The notes: generated by a model from the letters alone, not told the origin. DNA of 64,000 bases from Eledone cirrhosa (GCA_964016885.1 OZ024742.1:364932001-364996000), one strand, 5' to 3'; positions 124 to 63,184 are shown, counted from the first letter of the stretch. Made by a program: numbers and translations.

Positions 124-168
124 AACGGTGCTGATGATAGCTAAAAAGCTTGAAACTAGTACATCGTT
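124..168 (+). ncRNA. Minimal type I hammerhead ribozyme motif
   Basis: aacggtg-CTGATGA-t agct aaa agct t-GAAAC ta GTA-catcgtt. Stem I is 7 bp (one G.U), the core is intact, stem III is the palindrome ACTAGT, and the cleavage triplet is GUA. Confidence 0.85.
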
Positions 169-1672
169 CCTGTGTCAGTGTTGAACAAAAAGGTGACGTG
201 GTTGCCTTAACACCGTATGGCATAAATTCAGGCTGTTCAGTTTGTTTACAAACGAACAAAGCGACGTTATAACAAGCGCCGCTAAACTGATACGTGCATA
301 TATGTATGTGTACCTGTATGCATATGTATATATATATGTATATATATATATGTGCATGCTACTGTACGTCTGTATACATATATGTATGTACGTATACATG
401 CATACTTACATTTAAGTAAGTGCCATACTAAGAGTGAGAAATGAAATTTCGTTTTCATTTTGTTTCAATATATATATATATATATATATATATAGTGGTT
501 TGTGTGTGTGTGTATATATATATATTGGATTGTGTATATATATATATATATATATATATATATATATATATATATATATATATATATATATATAACTAAA
601 ATATCTACACAATCCACTAAATATATATTACACATGTCTGTATCGTTTCTGACTCCATATAAGTGTGTGTGGTAGATGGGGAAGATTAATGAAACGTATG
701 ACGTTATTCGCTAGAAATGTAGTGAAGTTTGGTTGTAAACATAGATAACTAGATTCTAGTACAAATGAATAGAATCTACACAACTGCCTTTCCAATTCCA
801 CGTCTGTTAATAAAACGTGATGGGAAAATCTAACAAGCTCAGGAATTGGAATTGCAGAATATAAAGCTTTCTAATCTACGACGAAATATATTTAGGTTTT
901 CAGATAATGAGGTATTAAAATCTACGAGTGTATGTGGTCCGTCTTTTAAACATTTTTTTATAGAAAGCATTTAACACTTTTCTTTGCGCAGTAACTACAT
1001 CTTTTCTATCTAAAGGGATGGTTTTTATCAGCCAATGAAACCTGATAGTTATCTATCTAAGTAGATAAAAAAAAAACATTGTTTTACCCATATATAGAGG
1101 TATTGATGTACAGTACAGCATTTCGCTTTGTAATCACATGGGTCCTTATTTCACATCCACTGCACCACATATTAAGCAAAGGTCATCTATATTCTCGGGT
1201 TGATACATTATTGGTGAATGAAATTTGTTGGATGGAAACTGTAGAAACTCTTATATATATATATATATATATATATATATATATATATATATATATATAT
1301 ATATATATATAAGAGCTTCTACAGTTTACATCCACTACCTATATATGTGTTCACCCCTCTCATATATCCAATTGTATATATATATATATATATATATAGA
1401 TAGATAGATAGATATAGATAGATATATATATATTGGTAAACGGAATAGAAAACGCTGACAAATATTTCACAATGAAAACTAGTTTAATTAGGAATAAGTG
1501 AGAATTAGTAATATTCAGTTTAGTATTCAGTTAGTATTCAGTTTTGGTTTTAAGTTTTACCGGTTGCGCATTTCTAATGCTTTTCAAAAATAATTTTGAG
1601 ATAGAGCGTCCGTGATATATATATATATATATATATATATATATATATATATATATATATATATATATATAT

Positions 1673-3463
1673 ATAAACGTTTGTAGTTGTAAGGCCAAGA
1701 CAATGCAGGTATGGATATAGAATATAAATGCAAAAACAAAAGATATTGTTGACAATTATTCTTTTACCTTAAATTTATTTAAATATCGTTAATTTTCGAG
1801 ATAATATCTCTTTTTCGGAGGCAAGTAAAGTGGTTAATCCAGTATTCTAATTAGCTTGCCAAGTCATGCTGACAGGAAATGGTATAGAGATTCCATTCTA
1901 TCTCTAATGTCAAAGAGTGAAGGTTAGGTAGATAAAGAGTAGTCTCCCTTTAAAAGGGATTTTGTACATGTTTGTTTAAGTGTGTTGGAGAATACGTGAA
2001 GGCGTAAGTATACTTGTGTGTGTGTGTGAGTGTGAGAAGATATGTCTATACGTAAATGTGGGGATAGATGCTCTATCACGTTAAGAGTGGTCTTTGTGTG
2101 TGTATGTGTGTGAGAGAGAATAAGTGGAGGTGTAAGCGTTTGTGTGTGTGTGCGTGTGCATGTGTGTGAGAGAGGGTGGGGTGGGGATGTAAGTGTGGGG
2201 CTATGTGCTCTATCATGTTATAAATTGGGTGTTGAGTTCTAGTCTATTATTGATTGGTGGTTGTGTTTTGTCTATAATCAGTGCTTCCTTAATTCTAAGA
2301 TTGCCGAGGTTTCTTTCCTTAGTTTCTATCCTAACTGTTATGTTTTTGTCAGTGCTTTTGCATTTAACTAGGTGTTTCTTAAATGAGGAAGCGTTAGTGT
2401 GGTGGTGTTCTTTTATTCTTATGTGGAGTGGTCTGATGATGCTACCTACGTAGAAGTTGCTGCATTTGTCGCACTCTAGTTTGTATACGACGTAAGCCTG
2501 GTGGCATAGGTCTGTGTCGTTGATGGGGCAGTTGGCTAGCCTGCAGCGCCTGTCATGTCTGGTGGAGTGTCTTTTGGTTAGCTGTCCACGTAGAGAAGGT
2601 CCTGTGTGGGCTAGTTGGATATCTAGTCCCTCTCGTCTGATAGCTCTGTGGATGGCTGTTGTTGTTTCTTCACTGAAGTGTGGGAGCTTCAGGAAGCAGG
2701 TATTAGTGCCTCGGGTATGGTGTCCTCTGTTCCTTCTGGCACGGTTCGTGGTGAACGTCGGGTATCCGTTCAGTTTGAGTACTTCCAGGAAATGTGTGGT
2801 GTGTGTGTATCTGTCTCTTGCGTCGGTGCATTTGTTCCGGATACGTGTAAGTTCGTTCCTTATGTATCCGAACTTAGCGCCAGCTGGGATGGCCTATCTG
2901 AAATGTACGAACAGGTCCCTGCTGGCGGATTTTTTTATAGAAGCAGGTGTGGATGTTGCCTTCTCTGTTACCCTGAGTTGGAAGTCCAGTAGGGATAGGG
3001 ATCCGCGGTCATCGGGGTGTTCTATGCTGAACTTTATACTGGCGTCCATGCTGGAGAACATACTCACATACACACACACGCGCGCATACTTATGCGTTCA
3101 CGTATTTTCCCACACACTTAAACATACATGTACAAAATCCCTTTTAAAGGGAGACTACTCTTTATGCACCTAACCTTCACTCTTTGATATTAGAGATAGA
3201 ATGGGATCTCTATACCATTTCCTGTCAGAATGACTTGGCAAGCTAATTAGAATACTGGATTAACCACTTTTCTTCCCTCCGGAGAAGAGATATTATCTCG
3301 AAAATTAAGGATATTTAAATAAATTTAAGGTAAAAGACTAATTGTCAACAATATCTTTTGCATTTGCATTTATATTCTATGTCCATACCTGCATTGTTTT
3401 GGCCTTACAACTACAAACGTTTATACCTCGTTACACAATGCTTCAAGTGAACTACAACTTCCT
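1673..3463 (-). mobile_element. 5'-truncated Penelope-like retroelement flanked by inverted pseudo-LTRs
   Basis: Arms of ~360 bp at 1673-2035 and 3061-3424 are reverse complements and enclose a PLE ORF remnant. Both ends abut (TA)n. Confidence 0.85.
2213..3060 (-). pseudogene. Penelope-like RT thumb plus GIY-YIG endonuclease remnant
   Basis: Minus strand reads IKFSIEHPDDRGSLSLLDF ... LKLNGYP ... CRLANCPINDTDLCHQAYVVYKLECDKCSNFYVGS..RIKEH ... LRIKEALII..QPPIN, with an internal stop at ~2894. Confidence 0.9.
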
Positions 3464-3633
3464 CCTATATATATATATATATATATATATATATATATAT
3501 ATATATATATATATATAGGTAGTACGGTGAAGTACTTTGTTGGTACCAAATCAAGCACACTATGCACAGGCAAAGTGTATATGAGAGAAACAACGAGGAA
3601 GTTTCTTTTACATATGAAAAATATTTATTGCGT

Positions 3634-3732
3634 ATCGACCTGTTACGCGCATTTCGCAGAGAATTGGCTCAAGGTGACCCATAGGTGTTATAGACCAAAC
3701 TCCAGTATCGATCTGCTCCTCAAACTGGTGAT
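3634..3732 (-). ncRNA. Degenerate type I hammerhead motif
   Basis: Reverse complement reads atcaccagt-TTGAGGA-GCAGA...TCTGC-GAAAT gcgc GTA-acaggtcgat. C3 is changed to T, stem II has a long loop and stem III is near-palindromic. Confidence 0.6.
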
Positions 3733-61257: not shown

Positions 61258-62087
61258 GGCATACGTTAAGAAGGGTGTTCGTGAAAGTGAAAGTAAATTT
61301 TCTGACAATTGAATTTGTTTGTTTTGTTTTTTAAAATGAAAGTTACGATACACACGCAATTGTATGGATTTCTTAAAATATATATATATGTGTGGGTGTG
61401 TATATGTGTGTATATATGTGTGTACACTGTGAATTTGTTTGTTTATTTACAACAGGTCTCTATAGTGATATGGTGTTAATTAGTATTGCGTGTGTGATTA
61501 TTTTTTCTTTTTCTTTTTTTGTGTATTGTGTGTACGTAAATTTTTTTTTAAAATAATGACACTGTGTGTTTTTAAATAGCAAGATATTACAAAAACATCT
61601 AAACGATGATGATGACACAAACACATATATATATACAAACACACATATATATATATACATACAGACACACATATATACACACATATACACACACACACAT
61701 ATATATATAAGAAAAAATAATCACACACGCAATACTAATTAACACCATATCACTATAGAGACCTGTTGTAAATAAACAAACAAATTCAGTGTACACACAT
61801 ATATACACACATATACACACCCACACATATATATTTTAAGAAATCTATACAATTGCGTGTGTATCGTAACTTTTACTGTAAAAAAAAAAAAAAAATTCAC
61901 TTGTCAGAAAATTTACTTTCACATTCACGAACGCCATTCTTAACGTATGCCTATATATATATATATATACATATACACATATACATACATATACGCAACA
62001 CACGTTGTTTATTACATAACTATTAGGCTCTGTTACCTACATAGAGCACTCTTTTTTCCTGGACTTTTCCGACGGAATTACTTCATT
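61258..62087. mobile_element. Fold-back element with family tail, no intact hammerhead seen
   Basis: Arms of ~245 bp at 61258-61507 and 61713-61951. The tail at 62003-62085 matches the tails at 49822-49912 and 45485-45585 (reverse complement). Confidence 0.8.
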
Positions 62088-62151
62088 TATATATATATAT
62101 ATATATATATATATATATATATATGTGTGTGTAGGAGGTGAGTTTTATTGT

Positions 62152-63054
62152 AGTACGAGCAGTAAAGCCCGGCGTTGCTCGGGGTCGCTCAGTAGCTGTG
62201 TTAAAGTTACAATGTTAAGTTTCTTTCTTGGCTTAAAAACTGTAGTGTCTACTGTGCAGACTTGCATGTGGTGTTTTTGATTAATATTCCCTCAACCAAC
62301 AATATGCCTTATGAAGTTAAGAAAACATAACGATAACCCCAATGTTATAACAAAAGAGGATGCTGGGGATAGAAACTGCACTGGTTATTTATTAACAAAG
62401 ATCGAAAATGTAAACACTGCAACGCAGAGAAAAACATTAGCGTAACCAAATTATCAGTTATGTCTGTCTGCACGCCTATATCACCTCTCTGCACGACTGT
62501 CTGTCTGCACGCCTATATCACCTCTCTGCACGACTGTCTGTCTGCACGCCTATATCACCTCTCTGCACGACTGTCTGTCTGCACGCGTATATCACCTCTC
62601 TGCACGACTGTCTGTCTGCACGCCTAACGACGAAATATTTGCTTGTTTTACGTAGTCTTTAAATAGACTTGTTTTCAAGTAAAAATATTGTTTTAAAATG
62701 CTTTTAAATGGAAATGAAGCAAAACGGAAGCTTAGTGTTCGAACTGATGAATTTTGCAGGTCAATATTTTGCTGGCTCGACAACTGTTAAAGCCAGCGTA
62801 ATTTTTTACGTAAGACGCTCAATGTAAACAGAACAAAGGGAAATAACTGATAACTTACGCTCAAAAATCGATACATTATATTCGATTTCGTCACATAGGG
62901 TGGGTCAATTTGAAATTTTTTTTTTCCGATGTCTTCGCTAGGGCTCAATGTACAAGTATAACAATTTCGGTGCTATTCCGTGAGAGATTCTAAGAGGAGA
63001 TGTGTGCCAAAAATCGATAGACAGACAGACAACCACAGTTTTATATATATAGAT
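62152..63054 (+). mobile_element. Non-autonomous Helentron-like element with internal minisatellite
   Basis: Terminal hairpin cccggcgttgctcggg, and the other end is (AGAC)n..ttttatatatatagat. A 37-bp unit is repeated ~4.5 times at 62461-62626. Confidence 0.62.
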
Positions 63055-63114
63055 AATAAAGCAATGCAGATATCGGATAAGTAGCACTCTACAATTTGTA
63101 GGACTGGAGTATAA

Positions 63115-63184
63115 ATAATATATAAGATCAAAAGATGGTTAAAACATGGAACTCTTTTAACCATCTTTTGTTCTTATATATTAT
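63115..63184. repeat. 30-bp-arm hairpin with tail
   Basis: ataatatataagatcaaaagatggttaaaa and ttttaaccatcttttgttcttatatattat are separated by a 10-nt spacer. agcactcta lies just to the left. Confidence 0.8.

Follow-up and report, generated by a model that had tools for sequence, protein, structure and literature searches.

Truncation, inversion, a one-sided tail and a bias towards (TA)n targets have been described for insertions of Penelope-like elements (PLEs) in Craig 2021 (PMC8557442; this and the other papers, with the exception of Frangieh 2024, are cited from excerpts). In Frangieh 2024 (PMC11167929), the protein of a lizard PLE was shown to nick AT-rich DNA on both strands and to begin reverse transcription internally, at a pair of neighbouring sites between which the tail lies, with both target strands extended in vitro; hammerhead cleavage is protein-assisted and dispensable for insertion in vitro. 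Many PLE families per genome, with hammerhead motifs mostly in truncated copies, were reported by Cervera and De la Pena 2014 (PMC4209133), and PLEs have been proposed as the mobiliser of retrozymes from shared hammerheads, co-occurrence and trees of pseudo-long terminal repeats (pLTRs) (Cervera 2020, PMC7229834; Li 2026, 10.64898/2026.07.22.740005). Here we analyse a stretch of 64,000 nucleotides from Eledone cirrhosa (GCA_964016885.1 OZ024742.1:364932001-364996000), called the window, in which a first-pass annotation had marked a dense system of non-coding fold-back elements with type I hammerhead ribozymes at 124-63184. The window is very probably a pile-up of 5'-truncated insertions from at least ten coding PLE families, mostly with Hydra-type motifs, together with two or three tandem, non-coding retrozymes, which probably rely on the same enzyme.

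The fold-back architecture, for which the first pass knew of no description at this density in such a genome, is already present in Craig 2021, Arkhipova 2013 (PMC3846280), Cervera 2014 and Frangieh 2024. As in canonical PLE insertions (Arkhipova 2013; Craig 2021), the copies show 5' truncation, an inverted 5' copy, partial tandems, an AT-rich target, palindromic junctions and a tail overlapping the start of the open reading frame (ORF; seen in family P1), and, likewise as in Frangieh 2024, the tail is the stretch between two start sites of the reverse transcriptase (RT). They differ in their longer tails and in that the restriction of the tail to one arm (the one-tail rule) is counted here, in 51/57 fold-backs from eleven families. 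The class itself is ordinary, since truncated PLE ends with hammerheads have been described, Octopus included, and what the window adds is new family members, in a locally dense case of biology already known. Modestly new are the count of the one-tail rule and the PLE signature on retrozyme insertions, neither of which we found in print. In the excerpt of a 2026 paper on Octopus vulgaris repeats (PMC13282606), Penelope families are counted and hammerhead, Hydra and retrozyme are unmentioned.

Insertion ends and composition of the window

The window, part of a 379-Mb contig, has a base composition of 36% GC and many (TA)n tracts throughout; PLE or retrozyme debris amounts to 16.8 kb, about a quarter of it (summed annotated intervals). 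Parents of the families were sought by searching the same 3.0-Gb genome with each family and reading the flanks of the matches (loci with L numbers below), and ends and tails were counted in the 239 loci that remained after removal of the window loci and 27 redundant ones. In every family one fixed 3' end lies immediately beyond the hammerhead and a second fixed one 44-140 nt further on, with the tail as the stretch between them; the 5' break is variable. Longer copies continue through 0.5-2.7 kb of 3' untranslated region (UTR) and then into an RT/GIY-YIG frame. TA repeats lie next to 270/325 ends (ten families), compared with 12% at random places; with the PLE frames upstream, this agrees with the first-pass view of PLE products targeting TA microsatellites. 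In 51 of the 57 automatically called fold-back pairs a single arm bears the tail; in 5 neither arm does and in 1 both do, a departure from independence of the arms with p about 2e-9 (chi-square). The longer arm can be either of the two.

About 14 fold-backs are visible in the window, more than the roughly ten (arms of 30-575 bp) noticed at first; their arms measure about 20-572 bp, and most have a one-sided tail of 44-140 nt and TA flanking both sides. The elements along the window are listed below, with a sign before a core giving its strand and cuts as predicted.

1-467, plus strand: family M, tandem non-coding retrozyme; 468-nt unit and a partial unit starting just left of the window; core 131 with cleavage predicted after 161; the element stops at (TA)n 468-493
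1675-3465, minus strand: family P1, 5'-truncated coding PLE fold-back; arms 1676-2008 and 3089-3421, end of GIY-YIG ORF 3064-2213, tail 3422-3465 with ORF start, decayed hammerhead near +3279
3518-3764, minus strand: family N, Hydra-type PLE 3' end; core -3723, tail 3520-3577, short fold-back 3726-3764
19863-20003, minus strand: family G, short tailed end that retains just the 3' half of the hammerhead
25605-25888, plus strand: family F fold-back, Hydra-type PLE 3' end; arms 25605-25792, tail 25793-25888, CAGAAGA core 25724
26079-26516, minus strand: family E fold-back, Hydra-type PLE 3' end; arms 26079-26423, tail 26424-26516, hammerhead intact (core -26176, cut 26127), 3' UTR about 1.3 kb
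27019-27218, plus strand: family G fold-back; arms 27019-27137, tail 27138-27218
27266-27594, plus strand: family H fold-back; arms 27266-27454, tail to 27594
37177-37348, plus strand: family O end, probable Hydra-type PLE (one linking locus); intact hammerhead, core 37251, cut 37296
37349-37442: separate repeat beside family O, with a second core at 37383
37817-38060, minus strand: family P end; core -37974, 79-nt helix II region, inverted piece 37977-38060 attached
45484-47457, minus strand: family C fold-back; tail 45484-45567, arms 45568-46139 and 46887-47457, spacer formed by the 5' part of the 3' UTR with the break at the ORF stop codon; cores -45650 (CCGAUGA) and +47375 (mutated)
47972-48817, plus strand: family I, 466-nt tandem retrozyme as fold-back; inverted segment from 47972, tail 48750-48817, core 48484, cut 48514, (TA)n on either side
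49822-52102, unstranded: family A fold-back interrupted by a fragment of a long interspersed nuclear element (LINE) flanked by an 11-nt duplication; left arm and tail 49822-50014, right arm to 52102; cores -49981 (helix III broken) and +52007 (intact)
52141-52472, minus strand: family R, Neptune-type PLE 3' end; minimal hammerhead core -52387, short fold-back 52421-52472
52473-53558, plus strand: family B, terminal part of a Hydra-type PLE with its 3' UTR rich in simple repeats; core 53477
55476-56603, minus strand: family B, second end; intact core -55559, cut 55512
54549-55475, 59245-60811, 62004-62086 (tail) and 63185-63885: further family B UTR pieces
56991-58883, plus strand: family D fold-back, 3' UTR of a young Hydra-type PLE; arms 56991-57472 and 58264-58746, tail 58747-58883; cores -57177 (CUGAAGA) and +58559 (mutated), 107-nt helix II region
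58938-59243, minus strand: family J fold-back; arms 59071-59243, probable tail 58938-59070
60815-61200, minus strand: family Q, probable third retrozyme; intact hammerhead, core -61121, cut 61054
61259-61950, unstranded: family K fold-back; arms 61259-61508 and 61710-61950, without a visible tail
63052-63181, minus strand: family L fold-back; arms of 32 bp at 63118-63181, tail 63052-63117; hammerhead present in a longer copy at locus L282

Hammerhead motifs

All 14 motifs counted in the first pass (124, 3634, 26119, 37246, 37868, 45586, 47366, 48477, 49917, 52000, 53469, 55507, 57043 and 58550) have the type I hammerhead layout. Ten carry the canonical CUGANGA core and four a variant or mutated one (3634 UUGAGGA, 45586 CCGAUGA, 47366 GCGAUGA and 58550 CUGAACA). 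Among the ten, helix III is broken at 49917, helix I mismatched at 53469 and helix I shortened at 37868, and about seven are intact throughout. The family N core in the window carries C3U, and 5/6 relatives have CUGAGGA. Further motifs were found at -61121, -52387, +3279 (decayed) and +25724 (variant core), with another core at +37383. Ribozyme cleavage is a prediction here.

A strict descriptor returned 7 motifs with an exact core and 10 with one mismatch, whereas 40 dinucleotide shuffles made block by block averaged 0.0 and 0.375, so that the excess proposed as a check is present; with a looser descriptor the counts were 6 and 10 and the shuffle averages 0.05 and 1.95, a poorer separation at one mismatch. 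The Rfam search suggested at the same time yielded, among the 150 of 337 matches listed, a single hammerhead (HH9, 48466-48537) at 33.5 bits, below the gathering score of 52, and its matches were dominated by microRNA models on TA/TG repeats; support for the motifs from Rfam is poor. RNA folding of ten motifs recovered helices I and/or II. The folding z-scores, below -2 in just 3/10 and weak for the other 7/10, were dropped as support.

As first proposed, the families differ in sequence and keep the ribozyme: the 14 motifs fall into ten unrelated or distantly related families with differing stem sequences, and canonical cores are found in 37/38 copies of D, 64/69 of E, 36/37 of A, 26/28 of B, 83/84 of I, 14/15 of M, 5/6 of N and 10/11 of O. 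Conservation within families is stronger support for hammerheads than Rfam or folding energies. Helix III is 3-7 bp in several motifs and the helix II region 26-107 nt, and by these predicted stems most are not the 'minimal' hammerheads first assumed. The opposite-strand pairs 100-700 bp apart and the U3-A8 core variant are shared with the PLE hammerheads of Cervera 2014 (PMC4209133), from which the present ones differ in that helix III is mostly kept and that CCGANGA is the majority core in C (27/30 copies) and P (5/8 copies). Other family-wide variants are CCGAAGA in P1 and CAGAAGA in F, in most copies and read with an offset, and UUGAUAA in G. A hammerhead-like core outside the named families lies at 4124.

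Coding parents and clade placement

Families B, C, D, E, N and O account for nine of the 14 motifs, and their longer copies reach PLE coding frames. Four further families of the window (P1, R, F and G) have coding links, ten in all, which answers the proposed search for coding PLEs sharing the arms. A PLE frame lies upstream on the sense strand in 25/30 loci of family C and 28/30 of family D, with query proteins drawn from the same locus sets and the window's own locus among the misses; the window copy of C breaks at the stop codon and that of D has 483-bp arms. In family B a 2.7-kb UTR, mostly simple repeats, follows the PLE stop in 3 loci, and much of 52.5-63.9 kb is debris of this UTR. The ORF end of family E lies 1.3 kb upstream in 2/30 loci, with the UTR common to 4 loci, and that of family R 120-240 nt upstream in 7 loci. 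Families F, N and O are linked to PLE frames in 3, 2 and 1 loci, respectively.

Family P1 has intact frames of 900 aa (L061-L065) with RVT_1 (5.5e-16) and GIY-YIG (3.5e-05) domains. Its fold-back at 1675-3465, with the GIY-YIG frame between the arms and the ORF start in the tail, and the ten coding-linked families do not bear out the label 'non-coding' given at first. Because many near-identical intact 900-aa copies exist, P1 has probably been active recently; some copies are large fold-backs with two full frames, and 17,173 first-look candidates were seen, a figure that is no copy number. In the other families the RT core and nuclease motifs were recognised by alignment to 700-aa homologues; the homologue search gave 768 matches, none with an informative name.

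In family G the tail continues into an ORF start in locus L279, a partial tandem, with a full-length homologue match at E 3e-18 of the Hydra type, which rules out a purely retrozyme nature for G. Longer G copies have a UUGAUAA (U3-A8) core. For this reason the searches upstream of G for CUGANGA-core patterns failed, the first giving none and the second 64 mixed matches, mostly joins to other elements. A G end (window 60208-60252; L189, L188, L186) belongs invariably to the 3' UTR of family B, from which it appears that one PLE captured the end of another and carries it along. Family A has an end and tail related to those of B and C, and walks upstream from it crossed 0.8-1.3 kb of simple-repeat sequence broken by nested insertions without reaching an ORF, with the same outcome for family P. 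Families A (two motifs) and P (one) together hold three of the 14 motifs.

The elements have the make-up of endonuclease-positive (EN+) PLEs, namely a single ORF with RT and GIY-YIG, pLTRs in inverted or partial-tandem arrangement with an optional tail, and a type I hammerhead motif in the pLTR. According to Craig 2021 (PMC8557442), the Hydra clade is marked by a CxCX5C linker, a C-terminal CxxC/CxH, an RWK-like motif and DKT in place of DKG; CCHH is absent, insertion is into (TA)n, a hammerhead lies near the 3' end, and the elements tend to be shorter than 3 kb, which is no rule. Its supplement lists Hydra-1_Obim of Octopus bimaculoides, with a (TA)n target and 3' hammerhead, and Penelope-13_HM, a Hydra member that has a 5'-truncated copy in inverted orientation and hammerheads on both strands. 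Here 7/7 C-termini, those of B, C, D, E, F, N and O, have CxxC and a CxH-type motif; the GIY-YIG core is free of a Cys pair in the four families covering that region, and the CCHH cysteines are absent in B, C, D and F. The CxCX5C linker is present in the four families whose sequences cover it, namely B, D, F and C (L067/L068), the aligned C copy having lost the third Cys. RWR of the family G ORF start aligns to RWK. By these motifs B, C, D, E, F, G, N and O are placed as probable Hydra-clade-type PLEs, and an initial Neptune label for families B-F was dropped in favour of the Hydra definition of Craig 2021. Families R and P1 both retain the Cys pair in the GIY-YIG core; R appears Neptune-like by its CX4CxxC linker, and P1, in which CCHH is kept, falls outside the Hydra placement.

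The linker, the C-terminal motifs, the (TA)n target and the canonical hammerhead near the 3' end are thus shared with the Hydra clade of Craig 2021. However, Craig's elements are generally shorter than 3 kb, with few outside cnidarians, whereas here there are at least eight families with simple-repeat-rich 3' UTRs of 0.9-2.7 kb; the 3' UTR by itself measures about 1.3 kb in C, D and E and 2.7 kb in B. Tails are 58-137 nt, compared with 30-40 bp in Craig 2021, and family-wide core variants are found here.

Formation of the fold-backs

According to the mechanism that we propose on the basis of published biochemistry, the GIY-YIG nuclease would nick both strands of a TA tract and reverse transcription would start at two neighbouring RNA sites. 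One complementary DNA (cDNA) per start site, both usually stopping early, would then be joined head to head to give the order TA, arm, inverted arm, tail, TA. We infer the two-cDNA step from the one-tail rule. The length of the UTRs and their abundance of simple repeats and hairpins would stop most copies before the coding frame and give them a non-coding appearance. Fresh TA tracts, together with TA runs within older UTRs, would attract further insertions, and such repeated insertion would explain the density of the elements.

For the inversion step, self-priming (snap-back) of a single strand is the published alternative to the joining of two cDNAs. Many junctions are near-perfect palindromes with centres of 1-3 nt, which Arkhipova 2013 (PMC3846280) interprets in this way, and breaks cluster near hairpins (in 22/40 top G matches the inverted partner lies within about 13 nt of the query 5' end). 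We consider it unlikely, though a serious contender, since the tail on one arm in 51/57 would demand an extra step, either arm may be the longer one, and Frangieh 2024 (PMC11167929) found two start sites bounding the tail and both target strands extended in vitro.

Whichever way the two arms are joined, the junctions differ from copy to copy (14/15 distinct in E, 10/10 in G, 4/4 in F and 3/3 in R), and three exact junctions were found in 1, 2 and 2 loci of the 3.0-Gb genome. Because they are almost all unique, the hairpins read as one-off 5'-truncated insertion products and not as spreading families. Breakpoints cluster at hot spots, and this accounts for the many similar-sized copies of G, E and N. 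Near-identical breakpoints at unrelated loci were seen for 56991-58883/L097, 26079-26516/L223 and L227/L228, with the tail on opposite arms in two of the pairs; these are probably hot spots, the other candidate being rare re-copying.

Tandem retrozymes

Families I and M are tandem non-coding units with a type I hammerhead in each, as expected of retrozymes. Family I (motif 48477) has a 466-nt unit in arrays of about 1 to 7 or more units that fill 10-kb stretches, and occurs on 14 contigs; family M (motif 124) has a related 468-nt unit. The canonical core is present in 83/84 I units and 14/15 M units, the latter measuring 420-468 nt, and the longest listed frames in either are about 60 codons. 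A four-unit array of a related 420-nt M subfamily lies 1-2.6 kb left of the window (L202:7350-9150), and a Neptune-type fragment was seen at L202:3565-4368. Family Q (-61121), with a 621-636 nt unit in partial tandem in three loci, is a probable third retrozyme. The suggestion that the hammerhead elements are retrozymes or non-autonomous thus holds for the motifs at 124 and 48477, and probably for -61121, which had been overlooked, but fails for the population as a whole with its ten coding-linked families. The units resemble the animal non-LTR retrozymes of Cervera 2020 (PMC7229834) and Li 2026 in their non-coding tandem units of a few hundred nt, from monomers to long arrays, and in the single type I hammerhead per unit with palindromic helix III; they differ in that a tail, (TA)n and inversion signature on the insertions is observed here.

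That signature was counted for retrozyme I in 26 loci, the window locus and 3 redundant loci being excluded. Of 20 visible 3' ends, 19 fall on two sites 67 nt apart, and 20/20 are followed by TA-type repeats. A 5' inverted segment is present in 13/21 arrays; one further inversion call was dropped as the unit's own palindrome. In the 4 loci with both ends visible on fixed sites, one end is long and one short in each. The two fixed 3' ends, the TA targets and the inversions make it likely that retrozyme I is moved by a Penelope-like enzyme. Arrays would be cut at the tandem hammerheads into monomers, possibly circular, and copied in trans from the same two starts. No PLE sharing the sequence of unit I was found. 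In the literature we found no report of a tail, TA and inversion signature on retrozymes, with Repbase notes and the supplements of Li 2026 and the Cervera papers, which may bear on this, outside coverage.

Growth of the arrays as local satellites by unequal crossing-over from a stranded PLE end, in place of copying in trans, appears improbable. Some arrays exceed 10 kb with units 98-99% identical, local amplification is discussed in Li, Clavereau and Pollet 2026 (10.64898/2026.07.22.740005), and a PLE with the unit sequence is missing from our matches; recombination does not, however, yield two fixed 3' ends, TA flanks and 5' inversions in a family spread over 14 contigs. Long arrays have likely also grown locally after insertion.

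Unit I is present in contigs of sequencing runs from four organisms, which as contigs cannot show expression, and no RNA run is listed among the runs carrying it, so that there is evidence of expression neither way. A paired A/T swap in helix II together with C at the cleavage site is found in one of the other organisms and also in part of the contigs of the best-covered run.

New retrozymes could arise from coding families. Family G copies in L277, L278, L280 and L281 are joined head to tail at different points, from the 5' UTR or first codons to the last part of the 3' UTR with omission of the coding frame, and two cores lie 348 nt apart in L280; these could be template jumps able to seed new retrozymes. 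Several G 5' ends are joined directly to hammerheads of other families, which suggests template switches from RNA to RNA. Tentatively, and just short of favouring it, we put forward a bolder reading: retrozyme I would give direct genomic proof of the mobilising machine by the two-start tail of a PLE, (TA)n and the one-tail rule; retrozymes would be born through G joins, L280 being a ready-made unit; a paired enzyme would start once per site; and the fold-backs would be a possible main source of double-stranded RNA (dsRNA).

Evidence against the account and other origins of the fold-backs

Several observations weigh against a pile-up of truncated PLE insertions made by this route. The loci behind the family counts are best-scoring genome matches and no random sample, and some of the 57 automatically called fold-back pairs are possibly two separate insertions. 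The clade names are drawn from motifs, and the joining of two cDNAs has self-priming as its published competitor. Pfam returned no domain in two Hydra-type frames (L130, L186) or in the GIY-YIG piece of the window. No ORF was found for family A in 30 + 11 loci and five 8-kb stretches, for family P in 7 loci, nor any ORF or parent for H, J, K and L in the loci walked; the middle of the single locus linking family O to a frame is absent from a second copy. TA follows just 1/6 tails in family N, only 5/10 visible inverted ends of retrozyme I lie on the two fixed sites, with 5/10 elsewhere, and a few junctions or breakpoints recur at unrelated loci.

Part of this would fit a picture in which the fold-backs are non-autonomous, non-coding mini-element families replicating as hairpin units. 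Two or three families are indeed non-coding (I, M, Q), A, P, H, J, K and L are without a parent found, two E loci have an identical junction and the window E junction a near twin in L223, the window F junction has one twin, and the window D copy and L097 have one breakpoint in common. We nevertheless consider it very improbable. Ten families are linked to coding frames and nearly all junctions are distinct, exact ones occurring once or twice per genome. The D copy and L097 share 0 derived variants and have 16 and 12 private ones, and their tails sit on opposite arms, as would be expected if separate events had struck one breakage hot spot. Re-amplification of fold-backs as units was rejected as the main route by the exact junction counts.

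That the arms are terminal inverted repeats (TIRs) of miniature inverted-repeat transposable elements (MITEs) or foldback DNA transposons duplicating TA, as their inverted arms in TA context might suggest, is extremely improbable: in place of symmetric terminal repeats, a conserved interior and a fixed target site duplication (TSD), the tail makes the outer ends unequal, inner ends and spacers are variable among copies, many copies are single-armed, and the arms carry a strand-specific hammerhead and continue into RT frames, which refutes it for the ten coding-linked families, although a symmetric version could hold for K. TA targets are typical of Tc1/mariner elements.

Significance

The retrozyme signature makes the question of the mobiliser testable, as there is a named RNA, two predicted starts and an intact young PLE in the genome. 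The one-tail rule in eleven families links the two-start result obtained in vitro to genomic products and constrains models of PLE inversion. PLE and retrozyme debris resembles simple repeats or MITEs, and its annotation is likely wrong. Finally, the fold-backs could contribute to the high load of dsRNA and editing reported in octopus (PMC5625713).

Other repeats in the window

Extra TA-flanked pieces lie at 596-1251, 1436-1614 and 36005-36300, and those at 1436 and 36005 recur at many loci. Broken frames of non-LTR retrotransposons, presumably related to R4/Dong by their motifs, are found at 8176-10049, 12164-15778, 28522-29046 and 30468-32098, with RVT_1 in two; 13367-14995 and 30468-32098 are 93% identical in inverted orientation. 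A long frame at 31733-35710 has endonuclease/exonuclease/phosphatase and RVT_1 domains followed by a zinc-finger-like piece, and we take it to be RTE-like. The fragment in the left arm of the family A fold-back (50015-51907; RVT_1, zf-RVT) is L1/Tx1-like and has the 11-nt duplication.

Two short repeat families resemble short interspersed nuclear elements (SINEs). The first is found at 5160-5274, 24101-24193, 44975-45071 and 60253-60322, and elsewhere often inside PLE UTRs; the second at 20424-20557, 27915-28056, 49415-49558 and 56704-56821. A tRNA scan of the window by ARAGORN, these repeats included, found none. A satellite with a 56-bp unit occupies 39136-44811, in about 102 copies with 94% matches.

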